From: Planctomycetota bacterium
Lineage (GTDB): Bacteria > Planctomycetota > B15-G4 > JADJEK01
Assembly: GCA_044225365.1 (NCBI GenBank)
Contig: JBGAIQ010000009.1
Span: forward strand, 96,462 to 160,461
Length of the DNA stretch: 64,000 nucleotides
Direction of reading: 5' to 3'
Shown here: positions 1-52,166 of the stretch, piece by piece
Position numbering within the stretch: position 1 is the stretch's first letter
How the letters are laid out: each line of letters begins with the position of its first letter
Translations under genes and position numbers: made by a program
The notes under the pieces: model-generated
Seen by the model: only the letters and a program-made list of their open reading frames with translations
Databases searched by the model: none
What the model was told of the DNA's origin: nothing

Positions 1-941
1 ACGTACTCGAGCTTCGACTTCGAGGGCGTCGTGACCGTGGCCGTGCGAGCCGGCGTGGAGCGCAGTTCGAAGGCGCCCGCAGCCGTCGTGACGATCGTCG
101 CGCGCGGATCCGGATGTGCGATCGTGATCGGCGCATTGCGCGTCGACGCGATCCCCGCGAGTCGACCGTCGCTTCCGTACGTGAAGTCCATCGCGAAGCT
201 CGCGTCGGACGCCGCGATCCGGACGAGTCGCCCGTTCTCCACCGTGAGGCCATAGCCGAGATCGTCCGTGACCTCGACCCGCGCGCCCGTCGGCAGCGAC
301 TTCCATACCGCGCTCGTATCGGCCCCCTCGATTCGTACGCGACGCATCTCACCGTCGGTCGTCACGACCCCCGTCGAATGCAGCGCCGATCCGAGATTGC
401 GAACGGAGCACGCCTCGAACACCGCCCCCGCCCGAAGATCTTTCAATTCGAACTCGACGACGTGATCCTTGCGGCGAGCACGAGCGAGCGGCGCGCCTTC
501 GCGCGCCCGTTCGATCGTGAGCCACCAATCACCCTCGTTCTCCTCCGCGCGGCCACGGTACACGCCTTCACCGAAAGAGGGCTCGGCGACGAACTCGACG
601 AGGCGCCCATCGTCGGTGAGCAGTCGCGGCGACTCCCCCCATTCGAGGCGTTGACCGAACGAACGCGTCCATCCCGGTCCGAGTCCCTCGGGGTCGGGAG
701 CGTCGGCGGTCGACGTGTCGTTGTAGTAGAGGACGAAGGGAGTGCGCGGAAGCTGCGTGACGAAGATCATGCCCCCCGTCGCGGGTAGGAGGCAGATCCC
801 GGAGTCCTCGATTGGGTAAGCGACGTCGCTGCCGATCGGGAGCCCGACTCCGCGCGAAGCCGAGCCGAGGTGATCGGCGCCGGACGAGGCCGGAACCGTC
901 GAGCACCACAGTGCGAGTATGCAGGTAAGGAGTGACATCAT
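1..941 (-). CDS. RHS/YD-repeat family protein, N-terminal part (gene runs off the left edge of the window)
   Basis: Not in the ORF track because it has no stop inside the window. The reverse complement from ATG at 941 (second ATG at 938) is preceded by GGAGGAG (complement of 942-950). It reads MMSLLTCILALWCSTVPASSGA (signal-like) ... DPEGLGPGWTRSFGQRLE ... FAMDFTYGSDGRLAGIAS (YD-type repeat) and stays open to position 1. Plus-strand ORFs such as 114-788 are Arg-rich antisense artefacts. Confidence 0.7.
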   Translation of the reverse strand, partial: MMSLLTCILALWCSTVPASSGADHLGSASRGVGLPIGSDVAYPIEDSGICLLPATGGMIFVTQLPRTPFVLYYNDTSTADAPDPEGLGPGWTRSFGQRLEWGESPRLLTDDGRLVEFVAEPSFGEGVYRGRAEENEGDWWLTIERAREGAPLARARRKDHVVEFELKDLRAGAVFEACSVRNLGSALHSTGVVTTDGEMRRVRIEGADTSAVWKSLPTGARVEVTDDLGYGLTVENGRLVRIAASDASFAMDFTYGSDGRLAGIASTRNAPITIAHPDPRATIVTTAAGAFELRSTPARTATVTTPSKSKLEY

Positions 942-952
942 GGCTCCTCCTC

Positions 953-1771
953 TCAGTGTCCTTGCTTCGTCCGAGTGTGTCGGCACTCGCAAGGGCTCTC
1001 GGCCATGTCGAGGAACCCCGCCAAACGGTCCGCATGTTCCTTGATGTCGTTCATTGCCTTCTGCATCGTCGGATGCTCGATGGATGTCGCAGGAATCGGT
1101 TTACCGTCTCGGCCGGGCGCTGTCGGTCCGGTCAAGGAATAACCATCTCCAATGACGGTGACCCGGGTCAGCTTTGGATCCGATGTATCCGGCACGTCGT
1201 GCGTCGGCTGACTCAGCATTCCATTGTGGACGACATCCGCCCACAGCATGATCGTGACGCTGCCGAACTGGTACTGATTCCAGATCTCGTTGATGATTCG
1301 CTTCCTCTGCAGTTCCCATTTCTCCTTCGCGTCGACATACGCCGCCATCGAATCATGCGTCATGAACGACTTGATTCCAGCGAGCGAGTTGAGCGCGTTT
1401 TGTAGGAAACGCTCCACGAAGGAGTACAAGAGCACGGCGTGGACCATTTCGTGGAAGTAGGCGGACTCCGTGATTCCTTTTCCAACCACTCTCAGCGTCT
1501 TATCAGGAGCCATGACGCTGGAATTCAGGGCTGCGATCTGCACCTTGATGCTGAAATCGGAATCTCCCGAGTGGGAGGTCCTCGCGTGATCCGTCTCGGC
1601 CGGATAGCACGGCGGATCCATCACGGGATTCACGTAGACGTACTTCTCGGAGTAGATGTCCACGCTGTCGAGCTCGGTGACGCCAAAGACCAGGCCTCCC
1701 AGCGCCTCCGAGAAGGCGACGCCAGCCAACTTCGGTCGCTGGATCTCACCGAGCACCCGACCGACCGTGCA
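953..1771 (-). other. C-terminal variable tip of the RHS protein: 272-aa putative zinc-metallopeptidase (HExxH) toxin domain
   Basis: This is the sequence after DPSGL. HEMVH is encoded at 1439-1453 (checked by reverse complement: CAC GAA ATG GTC CAC). Local GC drops: hand counts give 32/60 G+C for lines 1441-1500 and 1501-1560, against 41/60 for 3001-3060 in the repeat core. Confidence 0.6.
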
Positions 1772-4700
1772 TAGGCCACTAGGATCGACGAAATCGACCG
1801 GATCGTCGCCGACCCGGCTGTATTCCTTCTGGAGCGAGCTGGCGCGAATCGGATCCGGCTCCACGAACCGGCAATCCTCCGGATCGTACATCCGAGCGCC
1901 GTTCCAGTAGATCCCGTGGTTCGCGTCCCAGCGCATGCCCTGGAACCGGTCGACGTTCCACGTCGCGCCGCTCGTTCCGAGCGAGCCCCCGAAGGGATAG
2001 TACTCGAACCCCGCGGTCGCGAGCGTCGACTCGTCGAGCGTGCGCACCACGCTGCCCGTGATCGGATCGGCGAGCACGACGTGATCGACGCCGGATCGCT
2101 CGGACCAGATCTTCTGATCGATGCCGGTACCGAAATCCTCCTCCTCGAGTACCCAGTTGTTGTAGGAAAGAACGGGCTCGCCGTTGGGATCGAGCGTGAA
2201 GTAACGAATCGTCGAGCCCGTCACGGCACCGAGGATCGAGCCGAACGGATCGCGATAGAACTGGGTGGTGACGGCGCCGGTCGTGAGGGTCGCGATGCGG
2301 CCCCAGGCATCGTAGGTGTAGGTGCGAGTCGAAGCGCCGTTCGATCGCGAGGTCACGCGGCCCGCTGCGTCGTACGCGTACGTCGTCGTTGCGCTACCCT
2401 TCTGTGCCGTGATCAGGCGACTCGCCTGGTCGTAGCCAAAGGTCGTCGTCACGCCGGACTGCGTGGAAGTCGCGATGCGGCCGGCGGCGTCGTAAGTCAG
2501 GCTGGAGGTATACGCATTCGGTCCGGTTCGCTTGCTCGACGCCAGCGCACCGAACGATGTGTAGGTGAACGTCTCGCTGTCGCCCGCCGCGTGATCGATT
2601 TGCGAGACGCGATCTTCGCCATTGTATTTGTAAACGCGGTGCACCAGCGTCGTGCTCGATCGCGCGGCCGAGTAGTCGTTCAGTCGACCGCATCCGTCGA
2701 ATGCGAATCTCTCGTCGACGAGGCCGCGGATCCTTCGAAGCACGATGCGACCGATCGAATCGTACGTAAAGCTCGTCATCGGTTCGGTGATGCTTCCCCG
2801 TACGAGGTCGATCGATGAGATTCGACTCATCGAATCGTAGGAATACGAGAATGCATCGCCGTTCGGAACGACTCGCGCGATGAGGCGCCCTGTCGAATCG
2901 TAGTAATACGAGAACACCTCCCCGAATCCATTGGAGAACGACGTGACCCGCCCCGACGCGTCGTAAGCGTACTGATACCAGGTCGTGCCTTCCTGGATCG
3001 CGGCGAGGCGATCGTGCGCGTCGTACGTGTAACTGCGCGTCGCACCACCGATGCTCGAGCTGGATTGCGTGAGCTTGCCCGAGGCGTCGTAGGCGAAGGA
3101 ATACGTGACACCACCGGGCTCGGTCTGACTCGTGAGTCGACCGTTCGCATCATGCGTGAGGGTGAACGTCTGCGTACCGTGGACGACCGTAGCGAGGTTG
3201 CCGAGCGCGTCGTAGGAATACGACCACGCGAGATCACCGCCGTTCTTCTTGTACGTGAGGCGGCCGAGGGAGTCGTACGCGTACGTCACGGCCGGCGCGC
3301 CGTCGGGGGTCGACGTGAGGGGCTGACCCGCGAGATTGTAGGTATACGAACACCCATACCCCGTCGGATGGACCATGCGCGAAAGTCGGCCGTTCACGTC
3401 GTACGAGTAGGTCGTCGTCAGCACGGTGCTCGTCGACTGGGCAACGGGGTATTTCTTCACGGATACGAGCCGACCGCCCGAATCGTAGGTCTGGTCGATC
3501 CGAATCTCGCTCGAGGTCCCCGGAGCGAGTTTCGATACGGTGAGTCGACCGACGACGTCGTAGGCGAAGGTCGCCACCAGCACGCCGTTCTGCCGGACTT
3601 CCGTGCAGCGCCCCGCCGCATCCCGCGTGTAGGTCGTGGTCACACCGCCGCAGGTCGTGGACACGAGATCCGTGTAGAGGAATTGCGACGTGCTCGGCAT
3701 GGACCCCGAGGCGGCGTGCGACGTCTCGAGCCCTGCGAGGTTGTAGGCGCGTTGCAGTACGACGGCGGGATCGGAGTCGTTCGCGAGGCCATCGCTGTTC
3801 GAATCGATCCAGGGGCCGGTCTCGGTGACGGGGCGGCCCAGCGCATCGCGAGCGACCACGGTCGTCCGACCTCCCGAATCCACCGCGCGCGTGAGTCGGT
3901 CGGCGGCATCGTAGTCGTAGGTCGCCGTGCCGAGACCGAAGTACGTGTGCGACGTCTCCTGGTTCCGCGCTCCGAACGCGACCGACTCCTGCGGAGTCAT
4001 CGCGCCATCGAAAGTGGTCGCCTGGCGATTCAGCGCGTCGAACTGCGCCGCCTCGAGCACCGACGTCTGGTTCGCGATCATGGTCTGAACGCCGGCGAGC
4101 GAGGCGGCGGGACCATGGCGCGAAACGACGTTGCCCGACGCGTCGTAGCGGTTGCCGATCCACGTGACATTGCTCGACGTCGTGCGGATTCCCTGCGCTT
4201 CGATCCGTCCGGCGGAGTCGTACGACGTGAATTCGCTGCCGAGCGCGGTCGAGACTCCCGGGCGCGTGACTTTGATCACGCGATGCTGCGAATCGTAGTC
4301 GAAGTACGTGACGAGACCGTTGGGATCGGTCTCCGAGATCTTGTCGTGCGTCGCGTTGTAGGACCGGAACGTGATCGCGCCGGCCTCATTGCGGATCTGG
4401 ACCAGGTCGCCGTTCGAGTCGTAAGTGAATTGGCGATATTGACCCGCGGTGATCATCGCCTGAACGTCGGTCTGCGTGAACGCGGGTCCCGCGCTCTGGA
4501 TCACGCGCCCCATCGAATCGAGCGTGTCGAGGGTGATGCCCCCGCGGAAATCGGTCGTCATCGTCCGATTGCCCGCGAGATACGCGAAGGTCCAGGTGTA
4601 CGTCTCGGTGCCATTCGTCGCGGTCCGTGACGCGAGGCGACCCATCGAATCGTAGGTGTACGACTCGGTCAGCGCCCCGCCCTGGCGACTGTGGCTCGTC

Positions 4701-4978
4701 ACTCGGTACTGCGCATCCCACGTCCAGTTCTCGATCTGCCCACCGGGATGCGTCGCCTGCTGCAGGAGCGAGTAGCCGCCGGAATACGTGTACGTGTAGT
4801 TGTGCGTCTGAGCGGCGAGTTCCGCCGGATTCGGCACCGGACCGTACACCGGTCCACGGTGCTGGGTCACGTTGCCGAAGGCGTCGTACTGGAAGTCCTC
4901 GTAGAGTGATTGGGCGCTGGCAATTCCCGCCAGCGACATGGCTGCGGCGAAGAGCGAGACGGGGAGACGGAGCGACAT
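953..4978 (-). CDS. RHS/YD-repeat protein with signal peptide and C-terminal variable toxin domain
   Basis: 1341-aa ORF. The N-terminus MSLRLPVSLFAAAMSLAGIASAQS is signal-like. It has many YD-type repeats (YTYDSMGRLASR, YDALGNLATV, YAYDASGRVTS, YTYDAWGRIATL). The core ends with RMYDPEDCRFVEPDP...DFVDPSGL, the Rhs core boundary (DPSGL encoded at 1772-1786). Confidence 0.9.
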   Translation of the reverse strand: MSLRLPVSLFAAAMSLAGIASAQSLYEDFQYDAFGNVTQHRGPVYGPVPNPAELAAQTHNYTYTYSGGYSLLQQATHPGGQIENWTWDAQYRVTSHSRQGGALTESYTYDSMGRLASRTATNGTETYTWTFAYLAGNRTMTTDFRGGITLDTLDSMGRVIQSAGPAFTQTDVQAMITAGQYRQFTYDSNGDLVQIRNEAGAITFRSYNATHDKISETDPNGLVTYFDYDSQHRVIKVTRPGVSTALGSEFTSYDSAGRIEAQGIRTTSSNVTWIGNRYDASGNVVSRHGPAASLAGVQTMIANQTSVLEAAQFDALNRQATTFDGAMTPQESVAFGARNQETSHTYFGLGTATYDYDAADRLTRAVDSGGRTTVVARDALGRPVTETGPWIDSNSDGLANDSDPAVVLQRAYNLAGLETSHAASGSMPSTSQFLYTDLVSTTCGGVTTTYTRDAAGRCTEVRQNGVLVATFAYDVVGRLTVSKLAPGTSSEIRIDQTYDSGGRLVSVKKYPVAQSTSTVLTTTYSYDVNGRLSRMVHPTGYGCSYTYNLAGQPLTSTPDGAPAVTYAYDSLGRLTYKKNGGDLAWSYSYDALGNLATVVHGTQTFTLTHDANGRLTSQTEPGGVTYSFAYDASGKLTQSSSSIGGATRSYTYDAHDRLAAIQEGTTWYQYAYDASGRVTSFSNGFGEVFSYYYDSTGRLIARVVPNGDAFSYSYDSMSRISSIDLVRGSITEPMTSFTYDSIGRIVLRRIRGLVDERFAFDGCGRLNDYSAARSSTTLVHRVYKYNGEDRVSQIDHAAGDSETFTYTSFGALASSKRTGPNAYTSSLTYDAAGRIATSTQSGVTTTFGYDQASRLITAQKGSATTTYAYDAAGRVTSRSNGASTRTYTYDAWGRIATLTTGAVTTQFYRDPFGSILGAVTGSTIRYFTLDPNGEPVLSYNNWVLEEEDFGTGIDQKIWSERSGVDHVVLADPITGSVVRTLDESTLATAGFEYYPFGGSLGTSGATWNVDRFQGMRWDANHGIYWNGARMYDPEDCRFVEPDPIRASSLQKEYSRVGDDPVDFVDPSGLCTVGRVLGEIQRPKLAGVAFSEALGGLVFGVTELDSVDIYSEKYVYVNPVMDPPCYPAETDHARTSHSGDSDFSIKVQIAALNSSVMAPDKTLRVVGKGITESAYFHEMVHAVLLYSFVERFLQNALNSLAGIKSFMTHDSMAAYVDAKEKWELQRKRIINEIWNQYQFGSVTIMLWADVVHNGMLSQPTHDVPDTSDPKLTRVTVIGDGYSLTGPTAPGRDGKPIPATSIEHPTMQKAMNDIKEHADRLAGFLDMAESPCECRHTRTKQGH

Positions 4979-5096
4979 CGGGAATCCTCGAAGCGGTGGC
5001 GATGGTCGGGACCACCTGGGACGAGCGAGGATGCCGCGGCGACGTCACGCGGGATTCACGACTTTTTTTCCGTCCGTGGACGCCGCGGCGAACCGA

Positions 5097-8000
5097 TCAG
5101 GAGCGAAGAACGCGATCGGCCTCGCGCACGACGGCTGCGTTGAACAGATCGCTGGTCAGGAACGCCTCGCGCCGCTGGGCGTCCTCGATTCCCGTACTGC
5201 GCTCGAGCACGAGGTCGCGTGCCCGCACGAGGAACTCGCGAGCCTCGTCCTCACGATCGATCGCCTTCAGGCAGCGATAGTGGATGAACGACAGCTCGGC
5301 CTGGCGCTTCCTCGCGGCCTGGTGCGTCTCCAGGAACTTCATGCCCTTCTTGCTGACGGCGAGGGCGAACTTGGACTTGCCCTGCGCGAGGTAGGCGACG
5401 GCGAGCGCGGCGTAGGCGTAGGCCTCCTGTCGCGCAAGCTCGTACTTCTGCGCGATCGCCACGCCCGAGGCGGCATACGTCGCGGCGACGGCGGGGTCGC
5501 GCTCCGGATTCTGATTCGCGATGAAGAGGAGGGCGAGGGCGACGTGCGTGTACACCTCGAACGGCGCATCCGAGGTCATCTTGAACAGATCGAGCGCGCG
5601 TTCGAGGCGGGCCCTTGCTTCGGCATGGCGACGCGCTCGCATCGCGAGTTCGCCAGAGACGTACAGCGCGCGAGCCTTCAACGCCTGATCGGAGTTGGCC
5701 TCGGCGATCGTGAGCGCCGCGTCCGCGGACTTCTCGGCGCGTTCGAGGTCGCCGAGCTCGCGATAGGTCCTTGCGAGCTGAAAGAACGCGCGGCCCCGAC
5801 CGCGTTGATCCTCGAGTCGCTCGAAGAGCGCGAGGGCCTGCTTCTGCGTCTCGAGGGCGAGCTCGAGACGATCCGTCGCGAGATAGAGCTGGCCGAAGAT
5901 GAGGAAGCCGTAGGCGCGTCCCAGCTCGTCCCCCGCCGCAGCGGCGAGTTCGTCGGCACGCTTCAATTCGTCGTCATAATCGGTCTGACCGAGCGTCTCG
6001 AGCACGGCGGCCTCGACGCGGAGCGAGCGCGCCTCGAGCGCGAGATCACCCGCACGTCGCGCCGCCTCGCGCGAACGCTCGCAATGCTGCAGCGCCGCGA
6101 ACACGCGGCCGGTGGACGAGTCGTACGCAGCGAGTTCGACCTCGACCTGCGCGATGCGTCGATCGTCGTTGGCCGTGAGCGCTACGCGGGCGGCGGAGCG
6201 CAGCAATTCGCCCTGCCGCGCGCGCTGTCCCAGATGACCGTAGACCGAAGCCGCGCCGAGGAAGAGGGCCACGCGATCCGAGGCGACGATCGTGGCATCG
6301 TCGTCGGAAACCTGCGACAGGTGGTCGAGCGCCTTGTCGGCGAGCCGCTGCGCTCGCTCGTGGAGGTTGCGGTCCTCGCAGAAGTCCACGGCACCGATCA
6401 GATACCTGGCGGCGCGCGAGTGCGCCTCCGCGAAGGAGAAGTGGATGCCGGCTTCGTAGTTCGCGCGCGTCGCGGCGTGCGGGTCGGTGGACGACCGCGC
6501 GTGGATCTGCGCGACCGTCAGGTGATATTCGCGACGCAGGGCGGGATCGATCCCGAGGTACACCCGTTCACGCAGCAAGTGATGATCGAAGCGGTAGGCG
6601 TCGTCGAACGATCGAACGAGGTGATAGCGCTGGGTCAGTCGCGAGAGAACCTCGGAGGCCTTGAGGAGGTCGAGCCCGAGTCCCTCGATGACCGGCTCGG
6701 GTTTGAATCGCGCGCCGAACACCGACGCGAATTCGAGGAAGCGCTTCGCTTCGGCATCGATGTCCTCGAGCCTTCGCGCGAGCAGGTCGAGCACCGATTT
6801 CGGCAACGGCAGGCGCTTCAGCTCGGCGGGCTTGATCGAGCGCAGCTTGCCGCGCCGTTCCAGGTCGTCGATCAGCGCGAACAGGAAGCCGGGATTGCCT
6901 TCGCTCGCTTCGTGGAGGCGCTTGCCGAGAGATTTCAGGAGCGCCGGCGGAACGCCGACGTCCCGCAGCACGGAGCGGACGGCGGTGTCGTCGAGCCGCT
7001 CGAGCGTGACGTGGAGCGCTTCCTTCAGCTCGAACAGCTTCTTGAAGAACGGCGCCGACGGCGGCTCGCCCGGCATCGTCTCGGCGAGTGCGCTCTCGCG
7101 GGCCGTGAGCACGATGGCGATCGGGAACACCGCGAGCGTCGAGGCGAGTGCGAGCAAGGCGCGGAGCGAACCGCGATCGGCCCACTGGATCTCCTCGATC
7201 ACGAGGAAGATCGGCGAGCGCACCGACAGCGTGCGCAGGACCTCCGCGTACAGCGCGGGGACGGCTTCCGGCGGCAGTTGCTTCGCTGCCGAAGAACCGG
7301 CGAGCGCGCTCGCGCCCGGCGCATTCGTCCCGCCGGATGCGACGCCCGCGCCGCCTTCACCGAGAACGAGGGAAGCGAAAGCGTCGGCGAAGACGCGGCG
7401 CTCGGGCAGGTTCTCGCGCAACTTCTCGGCGAGCACGCGCGTGCGATCGGCGCGCGGGACCGCGTCGACGCCGAGGGCCATCAGCAGCGCCTCGTTCAGT
7501 GCGTAGTACGGCGTCGCTGCCGCTTGATCGAGGAAGCGCGAGACGAGGACCTGCGCGCCGAGCGGCTCGATCTCCTCGGACTCGAGTGCGCTATCGATGA
7601 GGCGCGATTTGCCGATCCCGGTCTCGCCGGTGACGACGACGACCCGTCCGCTCCGCGCGACGGCGGCCGTGCGCAATGCGTCGACGAGCGCGCCGCGCGC
7701 GGCGTCCCGTCCGTAGACCCGAGTCGCACGACGCACGCGCAATCGTCGCCGCGAACGCGACAGGTGCGCCTCCATGGCTTCGCCCTCGACGTAGGCCTTC
7801 CACCAGTCCGATTCCTCGCGTTCCTCGAGGATGCGAAGGAGGCGCGATGCCGGCTGGAGACGCCGCGCCGGGTCTTTCTCGAGCGCCTGCGCGACCACCC
7901 GCTCGAAGAAGTACGAAACGTCGGGCGCGAACGCCGAGACGGGACGCGGGACGAGCCTCGTCTGATTCGCCATCGTCGACGGCAGATCGGGACCGTGGAA

Positions 8001-8762
8001 CGGATTGAATCCCGTGAGGCACTCGTAGGCGGTGACGCCGAGCGAGTAGAGGTCGGTCGCCTTGCCGATCGGCCCGCTCGCGATCTGCTCGGGCGACGAA
8101 TACGCGGCGCTGCCGACGAACGTGCCGGGCAGCGAGATCTCCGTCCCCGGCTCCACGAGCCGCGAGAGTCCGAGATCGACGATGTGGAGATGGTCCTCGG
8201 CGTCGAGGAACAGGTTCCCGGGTTTGATGTCCCGGTGCAGGATGTCGTGCTCGTGGAGCGCCGCGAGCGCCGCGACGCCCTGTCGATAGACGTGGAACGC
8301 TCGGCTCTCGCTCATCCTCCCGTCGTCGTCGAGGACCTTCGAGAGCGTGCGCCCTCGCAGATACTCCATGACGATGAAGTGGAGCGTCTCGCCGCCCACC
8401 TTCTCGCTGCCGACGTCGTAGGTCGCGACCACGTTCTCGTGCTTGATCGCGAGGCCGACCCCGGCTTCGCGTTTGAATCGCCGGAGGATGTCCTCGTCGG
8501 CCGCGAGGTGCGGATGCAGGATCTTGAGCGCGACCTCGACGCCCACGCGCAGACCCTTCTTCGCCTTCACCACCTCGGCGAGGAAGACCGTTCCCATGCC
8601 GCCCGCGCCAAGGCGCTTGACGACGCGGTAGTTCTTGATGGTCTTGCCCTCGAGATCGTTCACGCACGTACTTTCGTTGTCAGGATCGAAGCTGGCGATT
8701 ATAGTCCGTGGCAGCGTAGGGCAAGCGTAAGCGATTGCGAGCGCGCTTTTAACGCACAGCAA
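5097..8762 (-). CDS. Ser/Thr protein kinase fused to a P-loop NTPase (STAND-like) and TPR repeats
   Basis: Kinase motifs are LGAGGMGTVFLAEV, ALKIL, HRDIKPGNLFLD, DLGLSR and GSAAYSSPEQ. A P-loop (VVVTGETGIGKSRL) follows, then a long helical-repeat C-terminal half. The true start may be GTG at 8663 (VNDLEGKTIKNYRV), which leaves a 112-nt divergent intergenic region with cysS. Confidence 0.85.
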   Translation of the reverse strand: MLCVKSALAIAYACPTLPRTIIASFDPDNESTCVNDLEGKTIKNYRVVKRLGAGGMGTVFLAEVVKAKKGLRVGVEVALKILHPHLAADEDILRRFKREAGVGLAIKHENVVATYDVGSEKVGGETLHFIVMEYLRGRTLSKVLDDDGRMSESRAFHVYRQGVAALAALHEHDILHRDIKPGNLFLDAEDHLHIVDLGLSRLVEPGTEISLPGTFVGSAAYSSPEQIASGPIGKATDLYSLGVTAYECLTGFNPFHGPDLPSTMANQTRLVPRPVSAFAPDVSYFFERVVAQALEKDPARRLQPASRLLRILEEREESDWWKAYVEGEAMEAHLSRSRRRLRVRRATRVYGRDAARGALVDALRTAAVARSGRVVVVTGETGIGKSRLIDSALESEEIEPLGAQVLVSRFLDQAAATPYYALNEALLMALGVDAVPRADRTRVLAEKLRENLPERRVFADAFASLVLGEGGAGVASGGTNAPGASALAGSSAAKQLPPEAVPALYAEVLRTLSVRSPIFLVIEEIQWADRGSLRALLALASTLAVFPIAIVLTARESALAETMPGEPPSAPFFKKLFELKEALHVTLERLDDTAVRSVLRDVGVPPALLKSLGKRLHEASEGNPGFLFALIDDLERRGKLRSIKPAELKRLPLPKSVLDLLARRLEDIDAEAKRFLEFASVFGARFKPEPVIEGLGLDLLKASEVLSRLTQRYHLVRSFDDAYRFDHHLLRERVYLGIDPALRREYHLTVAQIHARSSTDPHAATRANYEAGIHFSFAEAHSRAARYLIGAVDFCEDRNLHERAQRLADKALDHLSQVSDDDATIVASDRVALFLGAASVYGHLGQRARQGELLRSAARVALTANDDRRIAQVEVELAAYDSSTGRVFAALQHCERSREAARRAGDLALEARSLRVEAAVLETLGQTDYDDELKRADELAAAAGDELGRAYGFLIFGQLYLATDRLELALETQKQALALFERLEDQRGRGRAFFQLARTYRELGDLERAEKSADAALTIAEANSDQALKARALYVSGELAMRARRHAEARARLERALDLFKMTSDAPFEVYTHVALALLFIANQNPERDPAVAATYAASGVAIAQKYELARQEAYAYAALAVAYLAQGKSKFALAVSKKGMKFLETHQAARKRQAELSFIHYRCLKAIDREDEAREFLVRARDLVLERSTGIEDAQRREAFLTSDLFNAAVVREADRVLRS

Positions 8763-8775
8763 ACGGCAAAACCCA

Positions 8776-10203
8776 GTGATCCGCTTCTACAACACACTTT
8801 CGCGTCAGATCGAGGAGTTCGTCCCGCAGGAGAAGGGCAAGGTCCGCATGTACAACTGCGGCCCGACCGTCTACTCCAACCCCCACATCGGGAACTACCG
8901 CGCCTATGCGTTCTGCGATCTCCTGCGCCGCGTGCTCGAGATGGCGGGTTACTCCGTCACCCAGATCATGAACATCACGGACGTCGGGCACCTGCGCGAC
9001 GAGCGCAACGACGCCGGCGACGACCGGATGGAAGCGGCCGCGCGCGCGGAGCGGGTCGATCCGCAAACGATCGCGAAGCGCTACACCGATGAGTTCTTCG
9101 CCGGTCTCGAACTGCTCGGCATTCGCCGAGCGCACGAGCATCCGCGCGCTTCCGACAACGTGAAGCAGATGATCGAGATCATCGAATCGTTGATCGCGAA
9201 GGGCTTCGCCTACGTCGTCGATCACGAGGTCTACTTCGACGTGCCGAAGTTCCACGGCTACGGCAAGCTCTCCGGCAACGTCGGCGAAGAGGTCGAAGCC
9301 GGCGCTGGCGAGCGCGTCGCCGCCTCGGTCCTCGCGAAGAAACACGACAAGCGCGACTTCGCGCTGTGGAAGCACGATCCCGCGCATCTCCAGCAATGGG
9401 ATTCACCGTGGGGCCGCGGATTCCCGGGCTGGCACATCGAATGCTCGGCGATGGCGCGCCGCTATCTCGGCGACACGCTCGACATCCACACCGGCGGCAT
9501 CGACAACATGTTCCCGCACCACGAGTGCGAGATCGCGCAGAGCGAGGCATTCACGGGCAAGCCGTTCGTGCGCTACTGGCTCCACGCGGCGCACCTCGTG
9601 CTCGAAGGCGAGAAGATGTCGAAGTCGCTCGGCAACGTCCTGTTGCCGAGCGACCTCGTGAAGGACGGCGTGCCGGCGCGCGCGATCCGGTTCTACTTGC
9701 AGTCGGTGCACTACCGGCAGCCGATGAACTTCACGCGCGAAGAGTTGAAAGCGAAGTCCGCCGCGCTCGAGCGACTCCTCAACTTCTACGACGACATGCG
9801 GCATCGCGAGAAGAGCGGGAGCGACGCGCCGGTCACGGATTCGTTCCGCGCGCTCGTCGACACGGCCGCCGCACGCTTCCGCGATTGCCTCTACGACGAC
9901 CTCAATTCGTCCGGCGCGCTCGGTGCGATCTTCGAGATGATGAACGCCGTGAACGCGGCGTCGCCCGGAAAGGTCGGCGCCGCCCTCGTCACGAAGTTCC
10001 TGCGCGAGGCCGACTCGATCCTCGGCGTGCTGCCAATGGACACGCTCGATCTCGAATCGGAGATCGAAGCGAAGATCGCGCAGCGCGAAGCGGCGCGGAA
10101 GGCTCGCGATTTCAAGCTCTCCGACTCGATCCGCGACGAACTGCTCGCGCGCGGCATCACGCTGCTCGACACACCGCAAGGCGTGCGTTGGCGCAAATCT
10201 TGA
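8776..10203 (+). CDS. cysS: cysteine--tRNA ligase
   Basis: GTG start. Motifs are [18 protein letters not shown] (HIGH-type) and KMSKSLGN (KMSKS), with the expected overall class I CysRS layout. Confidence 0.95.
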
Positions 10204-12208: not shown

Positions 12209-13396
12209 TCAGCGCGCGCCCGTCGGACCCGATTTCGAAGCGCTCCGCACCGAGTTCGCCGGCGACTCCGAGCCCGACGCCGGCGGCCAAGGATACTCCA
12301 TCCCGCGGGCGGTCCTCTCGGCGACGTCCTTTCCGAGATCGCGCTCGACGAGATGGAGCGCCGCGTCGATCCCTGCGGAAACGCCCGCCGCGGTCACCAC
12401 CTTGCCATGGTCGACGTAGCGAACGCCCCTCACCACGTCCACCTTCGGGAAGTCGCGGGCGAGTCCGCCAAGAGCCGAGTGATGCGTCGTCGCCGACTTG
12501 CCGTCGAGCAGGCCGGTCTTCGCGAGCACGAAGGCGCCGGTGCACACGGAGAGGATCTGCGTCGAGGGCGTCGCGGCGGCCGCGAACCACTTCATGAAAG
12601 CCGTGTCTTCGAGGAGTCGTGGCGTATCGCCACCCGGCACGACGATCACGTCGGGAACGGGGCAGTTCTCGATCGTGTACGTCGGGACGATCGTCGCGTC
12701 GATTCCGTTTGGATGCACGGGAGTCGACGTCGAAGCCACGTAGAAGACCTGGTAGCACGGACCCTCGATGCGCCGGATCGCCGCTCCGAAGACTTCGGAC
12801 GGACCCGCGAAGTCGAGCATCTCGACGCCCTCGTGGATCACGATCGCCACCTTCGACGCATGACTCACGATCGAATCCATGGCGCGCTCGAAGCGCGGGT
12901 CGGCGCGCAGCTTCTTCAGGTCGGGATCATGACGGATGAGTCCCTCATTGCCGAGGCCCGCTGCGATCGCGCGCGAGAGACTCTCGAACGCGACGTCCGA
13001 TCGATCGAGCATCGCCTGCGCGCAGGCGATGTCGTACAGACTGAGGACGTGGACTTCGTGTTGCGATGGAGTCGCCGCATTCTCGGTGAGTTTCGCCGCG
13101 CGTTCGTGCGCGGGGAGCGCGTCGGTGAACCGCCCGAGTGAATGCAATGCGAACCCCAGGCGATGCCAGGCGACGGCATCGTCGTCGTGCGACGCGACGA
13201 GTCGCTGATAGGCCTCGGCAGCGGCCACCCAGTCGCCGGCATCGAAGGCCTGCGACGCTCGTTGCGCGAGATTCTCGTCCGCGGGTTTCGCCGCCTCACC
13301 GACGCCCGTCGGCGCGCTCCCTTGCGCATGGGCAGTACCGACGGCAAGCATGAGAATCGCGGGAATCAGCGCAAATCGGGTCCGTTCGAAATCCAT
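12209..13396 (-). CDS. secreted TPR-like + DJ-1/PfpI (class I glutamine-amidotransferase-like) fusion protein
   Basis: Start MDFERTRFALIPAILMLAVGTAHAQ (signal-like) at 13396, or MVM at 13402. The N-terminal helical-repeat region includes WVAAAEAYQRLV and AVAWHRLGFALHSLGRF. The C-terminal DJ-1/PfpI region includes VAIVIHEGVEMLDFAGP and ILSVCTGAFVLAKTGLLDGK (nucleophile-elbow Cys). Confidence 0.7.
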   Translation of the reverse strand: MDFERTRFALIPAILMLAVGTAHAQGSAPTGVGEAAKPADENLAQRASQAFDAGDWVAAAEAYQRLVASHDDDAVAWHRLGFALHSLGRFTDALPAHERAAKLTENAATPSQHEVHVLSLYDIACAQAMLDRSDVAFESLSRAIAAGLGNEGLIRHDPDLKKLRADPRFERAMDSIVSHASKVAIVIHEGVEMLDFAGPSEVFGAAIRRIEGPCYQVFYVASTSTPVHPNGIDATIVPTYTIENCPVPDVIVVPGGDTPRLLEDTAFMKWFAAAATPSTQILSVCTGAFVLAKTGLLDGKSATTHHSALGGLARDFPKVDVVRGVRYVDHGKVVTAAGVSAGIDAALHLVERDLGKDVAERTARGMEYPWPPASGSESPANSVRSASKSGPTGAR

Positions 13397-13696
13397 GACC
13401 ATCCTCTCGTATTCGAGCTCGCTTCGTCTTTGGGCGGCAGGGCGCGCTCGGCCAGCTCGATGACCGGCGCGCCTTGAATGGAACCGAGGCCAACGCCGGA
13501 TGCGTCCCTGCTGGGACCAACCGTTCTCTCCTTGTCGCGAGGGACGGCCGACGGGTCGATCTCGGGCGATTTCTCCCAAGTGCGCAGAATTTGGCGGAGC
13601 GACGGCGCCCGACTCCACCGTTTTGCCCACTGCTCGCGCCGATTCGTGCGGCACCTCGTTCGCTCTTCGAGCGAGCGAGCTTTCCGGAGGTGTTCC

Positions 13697-14509
13697 ATGC
13701 GTGTGATCGACATCATGACGAAGAACTGCGTCACCATCGAGCCGATGGCGTCGCTGAAGCAGGCGATGGACGAGATGGAACGGCACGACGTGCGACATCT
13801 CGTCGTCGTCGACGCGGATGGACGGCTCGAGGGCATCGTCTCCGATCGCGATCTGCTCGCGGCGACGGGATGGGTCGATGATCCGACCGATTCCCGGCGT
13901 GTCATGGATGTGATGCATCGCGACGTGAAGACGACGAATCGCCAGGCGGAGGTCGTCGCGATCGCGACCGAGATGATCGTCGATGCGATCGGCTGCTTCC
14001 CGGTCGTCGAGGACGACCACGTCGTCGGCATCGTCACGGAGACCGATCTCGTCGGGGCGTTCCTGAAAGCGCTGGAGCAGGGCATCCTCCCCCGCGACGC
14101 GGATCCGTTGATCGCGACGAAGATGACGCGCGATCCGCTCTGCATCTCACCCTCGGATACCTTGCTGGAAGCGCGACTCATCCTGCGAGCGCGCAAGATC
14201 CGCCATCTCCCAGTGATCGACGGGGATCGCGTGCTCGGCGTGCTGTCCGACCGCGATACGCGGCGCGTCGAAGGACGCCATCAACTTCGCGAGCCGGTGC
14301 TCGCGGAAGCGATCAAGCGTCACGTCGTCATCATCGCTCCCGATCAACGCCTCTCGACCGCCGCCGTGCTGATGTTGGATCGCAAGATCAGCTGCCTGCC
14401 CGTGGTCACGCCGGACACGAACAAGCTCGTCGGCATCCTGACCCTCGCCGATCTGCTCGACCATTGCGCCGCGACGCTCTGGCAACCGACGAGATTCGTG
14501 ACGGCGTAA
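13697..14509 (+). CDS. CBS-domain protein (four CBS repeats)
   Basis: ATG at 13697 with GGAGG at 13686-13690. Repeated CBS-type units are MRVIDIMTKNCVTIEP, VMDVMHRDVKTT, IATKMTRDPLCISP and EAIKRHVVIIAP, each followed by (R)HLPV/VVD-type strands. Confidence 0.85.
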   Translation: MRVIDIMTKNCVTIEPMASLKQAMDEMERHDVRHLVVVDADGRLEGIVSDRDLLAATGWVDDPTDSRRVMDVMHRDVKTTNRQAEVVAIATEMIVDAIGCFPVVEDDHVVGIVTETDLVGAFLKALEQGILPRDADPLIATKMTRDPLCISPSDTLLEARLILRARKIRHLPVIDGDRVLGVLSDRDTRRVEGRHQLREPVLAEAIKRHVVIIAPDQRLSTAAVLMLDRKISCLPVVTPDTNKLVGILTLADLLDHCAATLWQPTRFVTA

Positions 14510-14511
14510 AC

Positions 14512-14536
14512 GCGCGGCCGCGCACCCGGTTTTTTT
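14512..14536 (+). terminator. putative intrinsic terminator after the CBS gene
   Basis: GC palindrome GCGCGGCCGCGC (14512-14523), then ACCCGG and a T7 run (14530-14536), starting 3 nt after the TAA stop. The stem geometry is poor (short stem, tiny loop), so the call is weak. Confidence 0.4.
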
Positions 14537-14596
14537 GAACGCAACGGCGGGCGTAGGGGCGCACGGATTGTGCGCGCGAGTCTCACCCCGCCGACC

Positions 14597-14965
14597 CTAG
14601 AACGGCCGGTGGCGCGATTCGACGGCGTAGAGCTTCGAGTAGGCCTCGAGGAGTTGCCGCGAGCGCTCGTACGATTCCGATTCGTCGGCGGCGTCCGCCT
14701 CGGGCTTCAGCTTCGCGTCGTTGCGGAAGATCTCGAGCAAGGCCTCGTAACGCTCATGAGCGGCGAGCATCGAGCTGATGTTCGTGGCCTGATCGTGGCG
14801 GGCGACGTCGTCGAGGACGTTGATCGCTTCCTCGGCGGCGATATCGAGCGCCTCTTCCAGGCGATTCCAGCGCTTGTGACCTTCGGTCTGCGTATCGATC
14901 CGCTTCCGAGTCTCCTCGACTCGCGCAGCCACTTCGGAAGCGATCGCCTTCGGGTCGAACATCAC
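14597..14965 (-). CDS. hypothetical helical protein, translationally coupled to rbfA
   Basis: 122-aa ORF (MMFDPKAIASEVAARVEETRKRID...). Its start overlaps the rbfA stop by 4 nt. It has normal acidic/helical composition and no motif I recognise. Confidence 0.6.
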   Translation of the reverse strand: MMFDPKAIASEVAARVEETRKRIDTQTEGHKRWNRLEEALDIAAEEAINVLDDVARHDQATNISSMLAAHERYEALLEIFRNDAKLKPEADAADESESYERSRQLLEAYSKLYAVESRHRPF

Positions 14966-15723: not shown

Positions 15724-18700
15724 TCAGCTCGCACCCGCCGAGAAGTCGAGCGTGCGCTTCTCTTCTGCGACCTCGAAGGCCTCGACGATGTCGCCGACCT
15801 TGATGTCGTCGTAGCCATCGACCTTGAGACCGCACTCGAGGCCTTCCTTGACCTCGCGCACGTCGTCCTTGAATCGCTTGAGCGAGGCGAGTTTGCCGGT
15901 GTGGACGATGCGACCATCGCGCGTGAGGCGAATCTTCGCGTTGCGCTTGACGATGCCGTCCTTGACGATACAGCCAGCGATCGTGCCGACCTTCGAGACC
16001 TTGAAGATCTCGCGGATCTCGACGTGACCGATGACCGCCTCCTTCTGGATCGGCGACAGCTTGCCTTCCATCGCGGCCTTCACGTCGTCCACCAGCTGGT
16101 AGATGATCTCGTAGGTCCGGATATCGACGCCGCGCTGATCGGCGAGGGATCGCGCCTTGTCGTCGGCGACCACGTTGAAGCCGATGATCGTCGCTTCGGA
16201 AGCGATCGCGAGCAGCACGTCGTCCTCGGTGATGCCACCGAGCGCGTCGCGGATGATCTTGATCTTCACTTCCTTCTTCGACAGCGACTCGAGCTCCTTC
16301 TTCACGACTTCGAGCGAGCCCTTCACGTCGCAGCGGACGATGAGGAGCACTTCCTCGGCCTTGCCGGCTTCGAGGTTCGCGAACAGGTTCTCGAGCGTGA
16401 TGTTGTTGCGCGACGGACCCGTGACGCGGTCCTTGTTCTTCGAATGCAATCGCTCCTCGGCGACCTCGCGAGCCTGCTTCAAGCTCTCGAGAACGAAGAA
16501 CGGCGCCGAAGCGTCCGGCGGGTCGTTGAGGCCGAGCACGTTGACCGGAGTGGATGGCGCCGCTTCGGTGATGCTCGTGCCGTCGTCCGCGATGAGCTTT
16601 CGGATGCGACCGTAGCTCGTGCCCGAGAGCATCACGTCGCCGACGCGGAACGTGCCCTCCTGCACCAGCACCGTCGCGATCGCGCCGAGCTGATCGTCCT
16701 TGCGCGCCTCGATCACGGTGCCGCGCGCCTCGCGCGTCGGGTCGGCCTTGAGGTCCATGACCTCGGCCTGCAACGTGATCTTCTCGAGCAATTCGTCGAT
16801 CCCGCGGCCGGTCGTCGCCGAGGTCTTCGCGACCTGGACGTCGCCGCCCCATGCCTCGACGAGCACGCCCGCGGTGGCGAGTTGCTGCATGACACGGTCG
16901 GCGTTCGCTTCGCCGCGGTCGATCTTGTTGAGTGCCACCACGATCGGGCACTTCGCGGCCTTCGCGTGCTGGATCGCCTCCTCGGTCTGCGGCATGACGC
17001 CGTCGTCGGCGGCGACGACGAGCACGACGATATCGGTCACGTTCGCGCCGCGGGCGCGCATCTCCGTGAACGCCTTGTGACCCGGCGTGTCGAGGAGCGT
17101 GATCTTGTGGCCGGTCGGCGACGTCACGCTGTACGCGCGCATCGACTGCGTGATGCCGCCGGCCTCACCCGCTGCGACGTTCGAGTTGCGAATGCGGTCG
17201 AGCAGCGAGGTCTTGCCATGGTCGACGTGGCCGAGGAACGCGACGACGGGCGGGCGCGGTTGCAGCCGACCGGTTTCCTCGCGGGCCGCGAGCTTCTTGT
17301 CCATCGCATCGACCTTGGCCATCAGCGTCTGTTCGAGGTTCTGCTTCGCGACGATGTTCACTTCGCGATTGCGAGCCGCCGCGACTTCGAGCACGGCCAT
17401 TTCGTTCAACGCGCTGTTCACACCGGCTTCGTGACCGCCGCCGAGAAGGATGCGCAAGATCTCGGAAACCTTTGCGCCGAGCAACGACGAGAGATCGCGC
17501 ACACTGATCGGAACCGCGACTTCGAGCGGACCGGTGGGGACCGGCGGAGCCTGGGGCTTCTTCGCTTTGCGCGGACCGACGCGGCGCGGCGGTCGCCGCA
17601 GACTGTTCGCCGCCTGCCGCAGGCGGATGCTCTGCAGCAGCGGATCGTCCTCGTCGTCCGGATTCCATGCCGCGGAGTCGGAACGTCCGCGGATCCCGCG
17701 TTTCTTCGCGTTCTCCGCTTCGGTGATCGGATCGAGGATCGGACCCCGTCCGGGACCGCGCGCCGCGGCAGCGCCCGCATCGGGGCTCGCGCCCGGCGCG
17801 TTCGTCGTCGTCGGACCCGGAGCGGTCCGCATCTGCCGCTGCCGCTCGAGTTCCTCGCGAGGCAGCTCGATACGACCGAGGATCTTCGCGCCACCCGCCG
17901 GGCGAGAAGGACGCTTGATCGGACTCTGCGGCGCCGCGCCCGTGGCGGCGGTGCCCGCTCCACCCTGCCCGCCCGGCGCGCCGTGCTGGCTGGAAGGATC
18001 GTTCGTGCGAGGCGGCGGCGGAGCCACCGGCCCACCGCGAACGGTGCGCCCGCCCGGGAGATTCGCGCCCGACATCGAACCGAGGGATCCGATCGGTCCG
18101 CGAGCTGCGATCGAAGGCCGCGCCGGCGGCGCGGAGTGACTGGGAGACGGCGGCGCCGTCGAAGGCGATGGCGTACGCGGCGGCGCGGGCGGCACGGGCG
18201 CAGCGGGCGTCACCGCGGCCGCGGCCGGCCGCACGGGCTCGGATGGATGACTCTCCTTCGGCTTCGCCGCGGGCACGTGCGCGGGCGCTACCGCGGGCTT
18301 CTCCGCTTCGGGGGCCACGCTCGCGGGAGCCGCCGGCGGCTCGACGCGCGCGACCGGAGGGGCGGCGCTCTGGGGTGCGGGCGACGGAGGAGCCGTCGGA
18401 GCCGCAGCGACCGGTGCCACGGGCTCGGGGGCACTCACGCTCGAGCTCTCGCTCTCGCTCGAACCTTCGAAGCCACTCTCACCGGGCACGGACTCGTAGG
18501 AGTCGCCATCGCCCTCGGTCGCTTCGCCTTCGTTCTCGGAGGTGCGCACGCGCATGCGGCGCTTGCGCGGCTCCGCCTTCGCGGCGTCGGCAGGAGCGAC
18601 TTCCACGGCCGCGACCGGCGGCGGCGTCGAATCGCCGTGTTCTTCGCGGTAGGCCGCCTTGAGCAGAGCGATCTCGCCGACCGTCAAGGTCGCCGAGTGA

Positions 18701-18789
18701 TTGCGCGCCTTGAGGCCGAGCTCCTTCGCGAGAGCGAGCAGGAGCTTGCTCTCGGCGCCGATTTCCTTGGCCAATTCGTGAAGTCTCAT
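15724..18789 (-). CDS. infB: translation initiation factor IF-2
   Basis: The likely start [11 protein letters not shown] at 18789 was verified as CAT at 18787-18789. There is a long Pro/Ala-rich N-terminal region. G-domain motifs are [17 protein letters not shown] and NKID. Confidence 0.95.
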
Positions 18790-18833
18790 CGTGTGATCAC
18801 CGCGTACGTCGCGACCTCGGAGGTCGGCGACGC

Positions 18834-20090
18834 TCACGCGCCTCCTGTCGAGGCGTCGCCAGCGCTTGCGTTCGCGTCCGGTTTGGCCGGGGATTCCGCG
18901 GACGCCGAACCGCTCGTCGCGGAATCGGGCGCCTCGGACTTCGATTCCTTGTCCTCACCGCGCGCGGCGGAGAGTTCAGCGCGGAGCCGGCGTTCGAACT
19001 CGTCGGCGCCGACGGGGCTCGCGGGGGTCGTCGAGGACGACGACTCCGGCGAAGCGTTGCCCGGCGCGACGCCGCCGGTGAGCAGCGCTTCGCGCGCCTT
19101 CTCGACCTCGGCATCGGCCGCACTGCCACGCGGCTCGTCGTACGCAGCCTGCGTCGGGCTCTTGATCTTGATGTCGTAGCCGGTGAGACGCGAGGCGAGT
19201 CGCACGTTCTGGCCCTTGCGACCGATCGCGAGCGAGAGCTGGTCGTCGTTCACGAGCACGTGAGCGATCTGGTTGGCGTCGTCGAGCTCGATCGAGTTGA
19301 TCGTCGCTGGCTTGAGCGCCTGCTGGATGAACTCTTCGGTGTCGTCGCTCCAACGGATGATGTCGATCTTCTCGCCGTTCAACTCGTCGGTGATCGCCTT
19401 GATGCGACTGCCGCGAATGCCGACGCAGGCGCCGATGCAGTCGACGCGCGAATCGATCGAATTGACCGCGATCTTGGTGCGGAAGCCCGGCTCGCGTGCC
19501 ACCGCTCGGATCTCGATCACGCGATCGGAGATCTCCGGCACTTCGAGCTCGAAGAGCTTGAGGACGAGCTCCGGTGCCGCGCGCGAGAGCATGATCTTGA
19601 CCTTCGGGCCGACCTTCTTGACGTCGTACACGATGGCCTTGATGCGGTCGCCCGGGTTGTAGTTCTCGGTGCGCACCTTCTCGTGCTTCGGGACGATGCC
19701 CTCGGCACGACCCAGGTTGACGATGATGTTGCCGAGCTCGATGCGCTGTACCGCACCGGACACGATCGTGTTGACCTTGTGCTCGTAGTCGCCGTAGATG
19801 ACGTCGCGTTCGGCGTCGCGGATTCGCTGGATGATGACCTGCTTCGCCGTCTGCGCGGCGATGCGGCCAAGCTCGGTCATGTTGATGCCTTCGGCTTCGA
19901 ACTCGCCGTCCCAGACATCGACCTTGCCGGATTCACGATCGATCTCGACGGCAAGGCCTTCGCGCTCGCCGTAGCGCTTCTTGACGGCGGTCAGCAACGC
20001 GCTCTCGATCGCTTCGAACAGGATCTCTTTGTCGATATCCTTGTCGCGATGGATGGCGTCGACCAGTCGAATGAGCTCTTCGCCGTTCAT
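18834..20090 (-). CDS. nusA: transcription termination/antitermination factor NusA
   Basis: Start MNGEELIRLVDAIHRDKDIDKEILFEAIESAL at 20090 (CAT at 20088-20090). There is an S1-like region, and KH motifs GACVGIRGSRIKAI and AIGRKGQNVRLAS. The C-terminal tail is low-complexity Ser/Ala/acidic. Confidence 0.9.
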   Translation of the reverse strand: MNGEELIRLVDAIHRDKDIDKEILFEAIESALLTAVKKRYGEREGLAVEIDRESGKVDVWDGEFEAEGINMTELGRIAAQTAKQVIIQRIRDAERDVIYGDYEHKVNTIVSGAVQRIELGNIIVNLGRAEGIVPKHEKVRTENYNPGDRIKAIVYDVKKVGPKVKIMLSRAAPELVLKLFELEVPEISDRVIEIRAVAREPGFRTKIAVNSIDSRVDCIGACVGIRGSRIKAITDELNGEKIDIIRWSDDTEEFIQQALKPATINSIELDDANQIAHVLVNDDQLSLAIGRKGQNVRLASRLTGYDIKIKSPTQAAYDEPRGSAADAEVEKAREALLTGGVAPGNASPESSSSTTPASPVGADEFERRLRAELSAARGEDKESKSEAPDSATSGSASAESPAKPDANASAGDASTGGA

Positions 20091-27032: not shown

Positions 27033-27742
27033 CAGGGCTGCTTGCTCTTGTTCCGCGTCCGGTAGTACTGCAACAGGAGCTCTCGATAGCGGTCCGGGAA
27101 CTCGTTCTGCGAGAGCTTCTGGAACATCTCCTGGACCTTCGGCGGCAGGACGCCCCAGCGGCCGGCGACGTTCTCGCGCTGGTACTTCTCCTTCTCCGAC
27201 GGCGGATCGACGCCATCCGCCTTCTGCTGATCCGGCTTGCTCTTGTCCGGCCCACCATCCTTCGGCTGGCCCGATTTCTCCTCGGGCTTCTGCTTGCCCT
27301 CGCCCTTGTCCTTCTCGCCTTGCTGCTTCAGCTTGTCGACCTCGGGATCCTTGCCCCGCTCGTCCTGCTGTTTCTGCTGGGGAGAGTTCTTGGGATCGGG
27401 CTCGCCCGACCCCTTGCCGCCGCTGTTGGACTGCCGCTTCGCCATGCGGACGAGTTCCTCGATGTCCGTCACGGCCTGCGACTGCTTGGATTGGATGTCC
27501 TTCAGCAGCTTGTCGAGATCGGCTTTCACCTGCTCGATCCTCGCGGCGGCATCCTTGGGCGCATCCTTCGCAGCCTGCAACAGCAGCTCGTCGATCTCGC
27601 CCATCTCCTTACGGATCTTGGCTTGGAGCTCCTTCGCCTTGATCTCGTCGGCTTGTCCCCCGTCCTGCGCGACCGCGCGCTGCGCGCTCACGCCCGTGAG
27701 GATCGCCGCGACGCAGAGGAATCGCTGGATGCGCGTGTTCAT
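27032..27742 (-). CDS. secreted Lys/Gln/Glu-rich protein with conserved-looking C-terminal WGxLPP...YRELLLQYYR motif
   Basis: MNTRIQRFLCVAAILTGVSAQRAVAQ is signal-like. The middle is low-complexity KQ-rich. The C-terminus reads RWGVLPPKVQEMFQKLSQNEFPDRYRELLLQYYR. An ATGA overlap links it to the upstream gene. Confidence 0.6.
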   Translation of the reverse strand: MNTRIQRFLCVAAILTGVSAQRAVAQDGGQADEIKAKELQAKIRKEMGEIDELLLQAAKDAPKDAAARIEQVKADLDKLLKDIQSKQSQAVTDIEELVRMAKRQSNSGGKGSGEPDPKNSPQQKQQDERGKDPEVDKLKQQGEKDKGEGKQKPEEKSGQPKDGGPDKSKPDQQKADGVDPPSEKEKYQRENVAGRWGVLPPKVQEMFQKLSQNEFPDRYRELLLQYYRTRNKSKQP

Positions 27743-30525: not shown

Positions 30526-30569
30526 GGTGTGCCTTACGACCGATTGCGCGCGGCGGGGTTCCATCGTTG

Positions 30570-32906: not shown

Positions 32907-32940
32907 CGGTTGATCGGGTCCGTCTCGTGGTCCATCGGGC

Positions 32941-34092: not shown

Positions 34093-34145
34093 GGATTCGA
34101 TTCCTTCAAGCGTTCGCGCGGGGTCCATCGACTTTCCTTTGCCGC

Positions 34146-38780: not shown

Positions 38781-38951
38781 GTCGATTACCCCGCTAACGC
38801 GGAGACGATCGGGCGCAGCCTCCCCTCGGAACCGGCAAGGTTGCGAGGCGTCGCGGCAATCGTCTCCGTAAGTCCAATCAATGTATCGTCTTCTTTGCCC
38901 GGATGATCCAGTGTTCGGAGTTCGTGAGCGGCCGGGTCCGAGTCGTCGCCG

Positions 38952-50194: not shown

Positions 50195-52166
<1,972 letters not shown>

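Follow-up and report, generated by a model that had tools for sequence, protein, structure and literature searches.

Organization of the RHS locus

The window analysed here, a 64,000-nt stretch of a Planctomycetota bacterium genome, carries at one end a complete gene on the reverse strand that encodes a 1341-aa RHS/YD-repeat protein (953..4978 by ORF call, with the stop codon at 953-955), followed directly downstream by a partner gene on the same strand (1..941) that is cut by the window edge. The RHS protein is identical to P0008, found by whole-protein search on an NCBI 161-kb contig. The window is ordinary chromosome, containing the genes for IF-2 (15724-18837), enolase (50195-51781) and CysS (8776-10203) and a BatA/VWA/DUF4175 cluster (27739-45648, reverse strand), and it also encodes a 1544-aa PQQ_2/BamB-like repeat protein (34146-38780). 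Upstream of the RHS gene, at a distance of 119 nt and in the same orientation, is the gene for a 1221-aa Ser/Thr kinase with AAA_16 ATPase and TPR domains (5097-8762, reverse strand), which is not conserved beside the homologues described below. Long antisense ORFs, such as the 1384-aa frame opposite the kinase (4938-9092, forward strand), are an artefact of the 66% GC content and not genes.

The RHS protein opens with a predicted Sec signal peptide spanning aa 1-23 (4910..4978, reverse strand), read by eye from the sequence as MSLRLPVSLFAAAMSLAGIASA with the cut ahead of QS, and displaying a basic n-region, a hydrophobic core and an A-x-A site. The RHS repeats start directly after it and are matched by PF05593 RHS_repeat in Pfam (E 7e-74, 20 stretches) and by TIGR01643 in NCBIfam (E 2e-54), where YD_repeat_2x and RHS_core are also matched. 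The Pfam search returned no PF20148 match in the window protein, that is, no in-cis DUF6531 N-terminal plug, and PF20148 is also missing from the precomputed Pfam annotations of P0008, P0001 and P0009, while most canonical RHS matches there have it.

At the other end of the repeats, an RHS-associated core, or C-terminal plug, occupies aa 993-1069 (1772..2002, reverse strand), where TIGR03696 Rhs_assc_core is covered in full (1-76/76, E 6e-15), and contains the aspartyl autoprotease motif DPIR-x19-DPSGL, with DPSGL at aa 1065-1069 (nt 1772-1786). The first half of this motif in the window protein, DPIR, is without the Gly of DPxG. Beyond DPSGL lies the tip, an orphan C-terminal domain of 272 aa and 30.0 kDa (aa 1070-1341; 956..1771, reverse strand) with no library match, which contains an HExxH motif at 1439-1453. 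On recomputation, the coordinates given in a first-pass annotation for the ORF, DPSGL, HExxH and the 272-aa tip all proved exact.

The tip founds a small domain family

Neither Pfam, NCBIfam, PHROG nor PDB returned anything significant for the window tip, permissive thresholds included, and sequence and profile searches of curated libraries with all five tips of the family described here and with their conserved 133-residue core were equally empty. None of the five tips was matched by the Tox-MPTase1-5 or Peptidase_M91 models in hmmscan against Pfam-A at E up to 5-10. A word-index search of 5.8 billion proteins gave no match for the tip alone, a word-index homology search with a 3-sequence tip alignment gave nothing, and nothing emerged from pattern scans with the tip alignment across genome and metagenome contigs or with the scaffold N-terminus across metagenome contigs.

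An exhaustive phmmer search of 1.84 billion cluster representatives returned seven matches to the tip, two of them real, namely P0001, a 1332-aa RHS protein with 40% identity across tip residues 1-267, and P0003, a 735-aa RHS fragment bearing the tip. P0009 (1328 aa) came from the whole-protein search at 34% identity, and scanning for the pattern of the conserved N-terminus gave one further member, L007, in a Planctomycetota MAG (CAYJMF010000003.1). Beyond these members, identity in the whole-protein search drops abruptly to generic RHS proteins at 28% or less. The known family therefore comprises the window protein and four homologues, which makes five in about 15 billion predicted proteins, and from sequence comparison the tip founds a very small domain family not described before. 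The first-pass annotation had called the tip a unique domain that could not be placed in a named Tox-MPTase family, and on both counts it was right: the tip has four relatives in all, no curated-library match and no matching Pfam model, Tox-MPTase and M91 included.

The remaining phmmer matches were rejected, P0002, P0004, P0006 and P0007 as repetitive sequences in which the matched segment spans only ~25-40 residues, and P0005 as a spurious repeat-protein match. The stretch NQYQFGSVTIMLWADVVH, at tip residues about 155-196 (window about 1184-1309), attracts such spurious multi-copy matches, and the repeat unit of P0002, P0004, P0006 and P0007 (NQFGTVNLVVWADLCH) probably represents translated repeats.

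The five scaffolds are orthologous and ~1330-1355 aa long, and all share one layout: a signal peptide, YD repeats beginning at Q-[SQ]-[LI]-Y-[EV], a ~1045-residue shell, the motif DPxx-x19-D[PA]xG[LV] with both Asp conserved, and then a Cys. An equivalent leader is present in five of five and ends just ahead of the conserved repeat start. In the homologue at locus L002, a single in-frame TAG (about 2383-2385) separates ORFs of 608 and 735 aa, and past it the frame resumes (ARDT*GRHSTF); a pseudogene, a sequencing error or read-through are all possible.

A YD-repeat partner follows the RHS gene in most lineages

The partner gene encodes at least 313 aa within the window, with a signal peptide, a DUF6531-like N-terminus (E 0.0014, short of the Pfam cut-off) and YD repeats, and its ATG lies 11 nt past the RHS stop codon, behind a GAGGAGGAG ribosome-binding site. 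Orthologs of 370 aa in L001 (9763-10875; 40% identity, E 4e-48), 472 aa in L002 (4638-6056; 26% identity) and 524 aa in L007 (13917-15491) all carry significant RHS repeats, and the gap separating them from the RHS stop ranges from none, the genes being adjacent (L007), to 16 nt (L001). The partner is directly downstream of the RHS gene in four of the five lineages (window, L001, L002 and L007) and is absent next to P0009 on the four contigs that encode it (L003-L006), which indicates that it is not strictly required. In most lineages it is a translationally coupled downstream gene whose product may plug or extend the RHS shell in trans.

No small conserved ORF that might serve as an immunity gene is shared among loci L001-L007, and none follows the window tip. 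Its export, its YD repeats and its DUF6531-like N-terminus make the partner itself unlikely to be an immunity protein. A CarboxypepD_reg-repeat protein follows the RHS gene at the P0009 loci and follows the partner in L002 and L007; large exported CarboxypepD_reg-like repeat proteins lie at 6107-9661 in L002, at 12410-14758 and 7549-8358 in L004, and at 15504-17531 in L007, so that they recur beside the RHS module in three lineages. In the genome of the window, the equivalent region is outside the 64 kb.

The tip is inherited with its shell

The first-pass annotation had seen in the tip a horizontally swapped toxin cassette. In a classical polymorphic-toxin system, a recent horizontal swap would have joined a foreign tip of low GC to the core at DPSGL, with a cognate immunity gene nearby, and RHS proteins as a rule vary in the part C-terminal to DPxGL (PMC3482391). 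The window tip has some of the expected features, having the lowest GC of any 816-nt stretch in the 64-kb window and evolving faster than the core, with 39% identity to L001 against 54% for the core. The family as a whole, however, tells of common descent. The same tip recurs on all five orthologous scaffolds, no exchange of cassettes was seen among them, and core identities parallel tip identities in 10 of 10 pairs, amounting to 54% and 40%, respectively, between L003 and L007 and to 32-42% and 17-28% in all pairs other than this one and the window with L001. A search for the tip on other scaffolds, whether RHS, CDI or MAF, which the annotation had suggested, found none among 1.84 billion representative proteins, genome scans and metagenome scans. 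Moreover, the gene 11 nt downstream encodes a conserved YD-repeat protein rather than an immunity protein, and no conserved small ORF flanks the homologues. The tip thus diverges faster than the shell yet shares its history, and we conclude that it is inherited with the RHS shell and is not a swapped toxin cassette; the cassette explanation, largely refuted by the core/tip congruence, now appears improbable.

In base composition, on which the annotation had relied, the direction of the reported GC drop held, with GC at 0.581 in the tip, 0.638 in the rest of the gene and 0.658 in the window, and its size did not, the fractions corresponding to 35/60 against 38/60 instead of 32 against 41. The drop is also not sharp at the core boundary: in blocks of 68 codons, the first block of the tip (aa 1070-1137) is core-like (GC 0.642, GC3 0.853), so that the fall begins near aa 1138, about 200 nt inside the tip and not at DPSGL. 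An equally deep low stretch lies within the repeat core at aa 662-797 (about 2588-2995; GC 0.57, GC3 0.72).

Predicted from the residues under host codon usage, taking as reference 20-odd confidently framed genes within the window, GC would be 0.619 in the tip and 0.644 in the core, so that about 40% of the fall reflects amino-acid composition. The tip has fewer Gly, Ala, Arg and Thr and more Lys, Ile, Met and His than the core, and its GC2 is 0.415 against 0.528. The remainder reflects a real shortage of G+C at third codon positions: GC3 is 0.754 where 0.849 is expected, and this value, 0.095 below expectation, stands at the 0.4th percentile of 272-codon windows and speaks for the cassette explanation. 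This drop is missing in the four homologues, in which tip GC3 minus core GC3 ranges from -0.012 to +0.042, while GC2 lies below that of the core in every homologue tip. Since GC2 is lower in all tips and GC3 is flat in the four homologues, the recurrent part of the GC dip reflects amino-acid composition. The modest GC3 deficit is confined to the window tip and is not accounted for by co-inheritance.

An HExxH motif is invariant across the family

The five tips could be aligned end to end at pairwise identities of 17-40% (tip numbering below has C1 at aa 1070), and only 16 of about 260 columns are invariant: C1, G4, P54, C55, D61, H107, E108, H111, L130, G132, S135, H139, A144, W152, C261 and C263. 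Among them are both His and the Glu of HEMVH (aa 1176-1180; 1439..1453, reverse strand), the proposed metal-binding and catalytic motif, which sits within YFHEMVHAVLLY of the tip. Invariant His1208 (H139; 1355..1357, reverse strand) stands 27 residues past HExxH, inside a conserved G-[IA]-x-S-x-x-[TIV]-H block, and is a candidate third metal ligand, a role that we guess from the alignment. The alignment contains no invariant Glu or Asp after HExxH of the kind found in gluzincins.

Four invariant cysteines complete the signature, all encoded on the reverse strand. Cys1070 (C1; 1769..1771) is the predicted new N-terminus after autoproteolysis, Cys1124 (1607..1609) belongs to a conserved P-C-[YW] motif in which P54 and C55 are invariant, and a C-x-C close to the C-terminus (aa 1330-1332; 983..991) supplies C261 and C263.

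Because the full H-E-x-x-H and the His 27 residues on survive at 17-40% tip identity, their conservation shows a motif that is functional and not incidental, with the proviso that invariance in five sequences is weaker evidence than it appears. A decaying or non-functional C-terminal extension with a chance HExxH is accordingly very improbable. By our estimate about 2% of 272-aa proteins with such a composition would contain an HExxH by chance, the family is extremely rare, and the L002 homologue has an in-frame stop in its repeat region, all of which would fit that explanation; against this, the tip can be aligned over its whole length across five lineages with core identities of 32-54%, its motif blocks are conserved, and its reading frame is intact in all five.

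Fold prediction and the nature of the tip

AlphaFold2 models of the tip reached a mean pLDDT of 35.2 from the single sequence and 38.7 from a 3-sequence alignment, too low to judge the fold. These low-confidence models place beta-strands first, then HExxH opening a long helix, and then a second helix from H139, and a Foldseek search of the better model against PDB returned noise only. Searches of Pfam, NCBIfam, PHROG and PDB gave no significant similarity of the tip to any peptidase family or structure. The top matches of a PDB profile search were the HExxH active sites of the M41 proteases YME1 and FtsH, at non-significant E values of 0.1-0.5, and in Pfam a sub-threshold match to DUF922 across HExxH was obtained with one tip only; we regard both as hints, not tests.

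Taking these observations together, the tip is best read as a new zincin-like metallohydrolase, probably a peptidase, and this is the interpretation that we consider probable from the conserved motifs. The first-pass annotation had raised the idea of a new metallopeptidase toxin clade, of which the unplaceable domain with an invariant HExxH survives, and the cassette does not.

A less likely explanation is a conserved domain that is not a peptidase, either another metal-dependent enzyme (for instance a hydrolase of lipids, glycans or nucleic acids) or a module with a structural or binding role, in which His, Glu and Cys bind metal for other chemistry or for stability, and which might be displayed outside the shell in a teneurin-like manner. 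No peptidase family was matched at significance, the four invariant Cys and several invariant His could build structural metal sites or disulfides, 30 kDa is large for encapsulation (PMC8636562), and the lack of polymorphism and immunity suits a role other than that of a toxin. However, zincin hydrolases are characterized by exactly such a combination, an invariant H-E-x-x-H on a predicted helix followed by another invariant His; zinc proteases account for the only weak echoes in the databases; and the autoprotease motif, being intact, speaks for a cargo that is released.

A model for a putative exported RHS cocoon

In the model that best explains the locus as a whole, to which we assign a probability of about 0.6, the RHS protein would be exported by Sec as a cocoon shell with a fixed cargo of the zinc-hydrolase type. 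By analogy with characterized Rhs proteins, the two conserved Asp of the C-terminal plug probably cut after Leu1069, which would free the 30.0-kDa domain inside the shell with the invariant Cys1070 as its first residue. The freed domain would then carry out zinc-dependent hydrolysis through His1176, His1180 and Glu1177, probably with His1208 as the third metal ligand, and in the exported protein the four invariant Cys would probably be paired in disulfides or build a second metal site. Finally, the DUF6531-like YD partner may act in trans to close the shell as a plug or to lengthen it, much as TcB serves TcC. We infer this last step from a scaffold without DUF6531, an oversized cargo and the usual presence of a DUF6531-like YD protein downstream, and the absence of the partner in one lineage limits our confidence in it.

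For Rhs1 and Tse5 it is established that the protein is cut behind the Leu of DPxGL and that the toxin is encapsulated (PMC8636562, PMC10684867), with cut sites between L1342 and A1343 (PMC8636562) and between L1168 and I1169 (PMC10684867). The Rhs cavities of 28,000-35,000 cubic angstroms enclose toxins of 15-16 kDa and are said to fit <25 kDa (PMC8636562, PMC10684867), and a tip of 30 kDa, measured against the <25 kDa said to fit a single Rhs shell (PMC8636562), counts against the encapsulation step. DUF6531 forms the N-terminal plug (PMC10684867), and in Tc toxins a different protein supplies the N-terminal plug and lengthens the barrel (PMC8636562).

As for the target, the lack of polymorphism and of an adjacent immunity gene makes an effector directed against non-self, or against extracellular or envelope proteins, more likely than an intraspecific competition toxin. 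A bolder version of the model, which we put forward only tentatively and think unlikely in full, would set these proteins apart as a distinct, non-polymorphic class of Sec-exported RHS cocoon in which the DUF6531/YD partner closes the barrel around a fixed 30-kDa zincin-type cargo with an N-terminal Cys and a non-kin role. Such a class, so far seen in a Planctomycetota MAG and in metagenome lineages, would resemble a reversed, miniature TcB-TcC, and in place of kin competition its role could be in preying on other cells, in remodelling surfaces or in attacking eukaryotes.

RHS proteins with peptidase-type tips are already known, so that the basic idea is not new, and no long-standing question is answered here. 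What the locus adds to the known RHS proteins with HExxH tips is a very rare domain family, new within that class, whose organization is fixed, immunity-less and possibly two-protein. The enzymatic claim is inferential; if the activity were shown, the catalogues of toxins and peptidases would gain a new HExxH family. The family also departs from the usual rule by which a GC dip in an RHS tip marks a swapped cassette, since here tip and shell co-diverge, and the missing in-cis plug, the downstream DUF6531-like/YD protein and the over-sized cargo together hint at a two-protein RHS shell outside Tc toxins.

Comparison with known systems

The local resemblance of the tip to M41 proteases (FtsH/YME1) and DUF922 covers the HE-x-GH-A motif and the preceding ~30 residues; unlike a family relationship with these proteins, it is confined to the motif region, is not significant (E 0.1-0.5) and stands in an unrelated domain context.

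RHS proteins with HExxH metallopeptidase tips for which no immunity protein is listed are a recognised class, comprising Tox-MPTase1-5 and HopH1, and a signal-peptide (T2SS/Sec) route is listed for several Tox-MPTase/HopH1-type families (PMC3482391). With Tox-MPTase1-5 and the HopH1/NleD-type M91 domains (Zhang et al. 2012, PMC3482391) the window protein shares a YD-repeat shell, a core ending in DPxGL and an HExxH tip, and its lack of immunity and polymorphism matches the table of Zhang et al. for RHS-borne metallopeptidase toxins (PMC3482391). By contrast, none of the five tips matches the Pfam models of those families, and the tip is larger (272 aa), is not polymorphic, is fixed as one tip to one scaffold, and bears a signature of its own consisting of a C-T-x-G start, P-C-[YW], HExxH-x27-H and a C-terminal CxC.

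Like the T6SS proteins Rhs1 of P. laumondii, Tse5 of P. aeruginosa and RhsA of P. protegens, the window protein combines a YD-repeat beta-barrel shell with an aspartyl-protease plug (DPxG-x18/19-DPxG in those proteins), and by homology Leu cleavage and an encapsulated C-terminal domain would be expected. Unlike them, the window system is without PAAR, prePAAR, an in-cis DUF6531 plug and an Eag chaperone, and has instead a Sec signal peptide; its cargo is 30 kDa rather than 15-16 kDa, no immunity gene is present, and a separate DUF6531-like/YD protein is encoded downstream.

The closest parallel for such a pair of genes may be the TcB-TcC cocoon of Tc toxins. The gene order here is reversed, with shell and cargo first and a small partner second, the partner measures 370-524 aa and is missing in one lineage, and neither a beta-propeller nor a TcA partner was detected. 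As in TcB-TcC, however, and as predicted from the genes, two YD-repeat proteins could jointly enclose a cargo of ~30 kDa and release it through an aspartyl protease of the TcC type.
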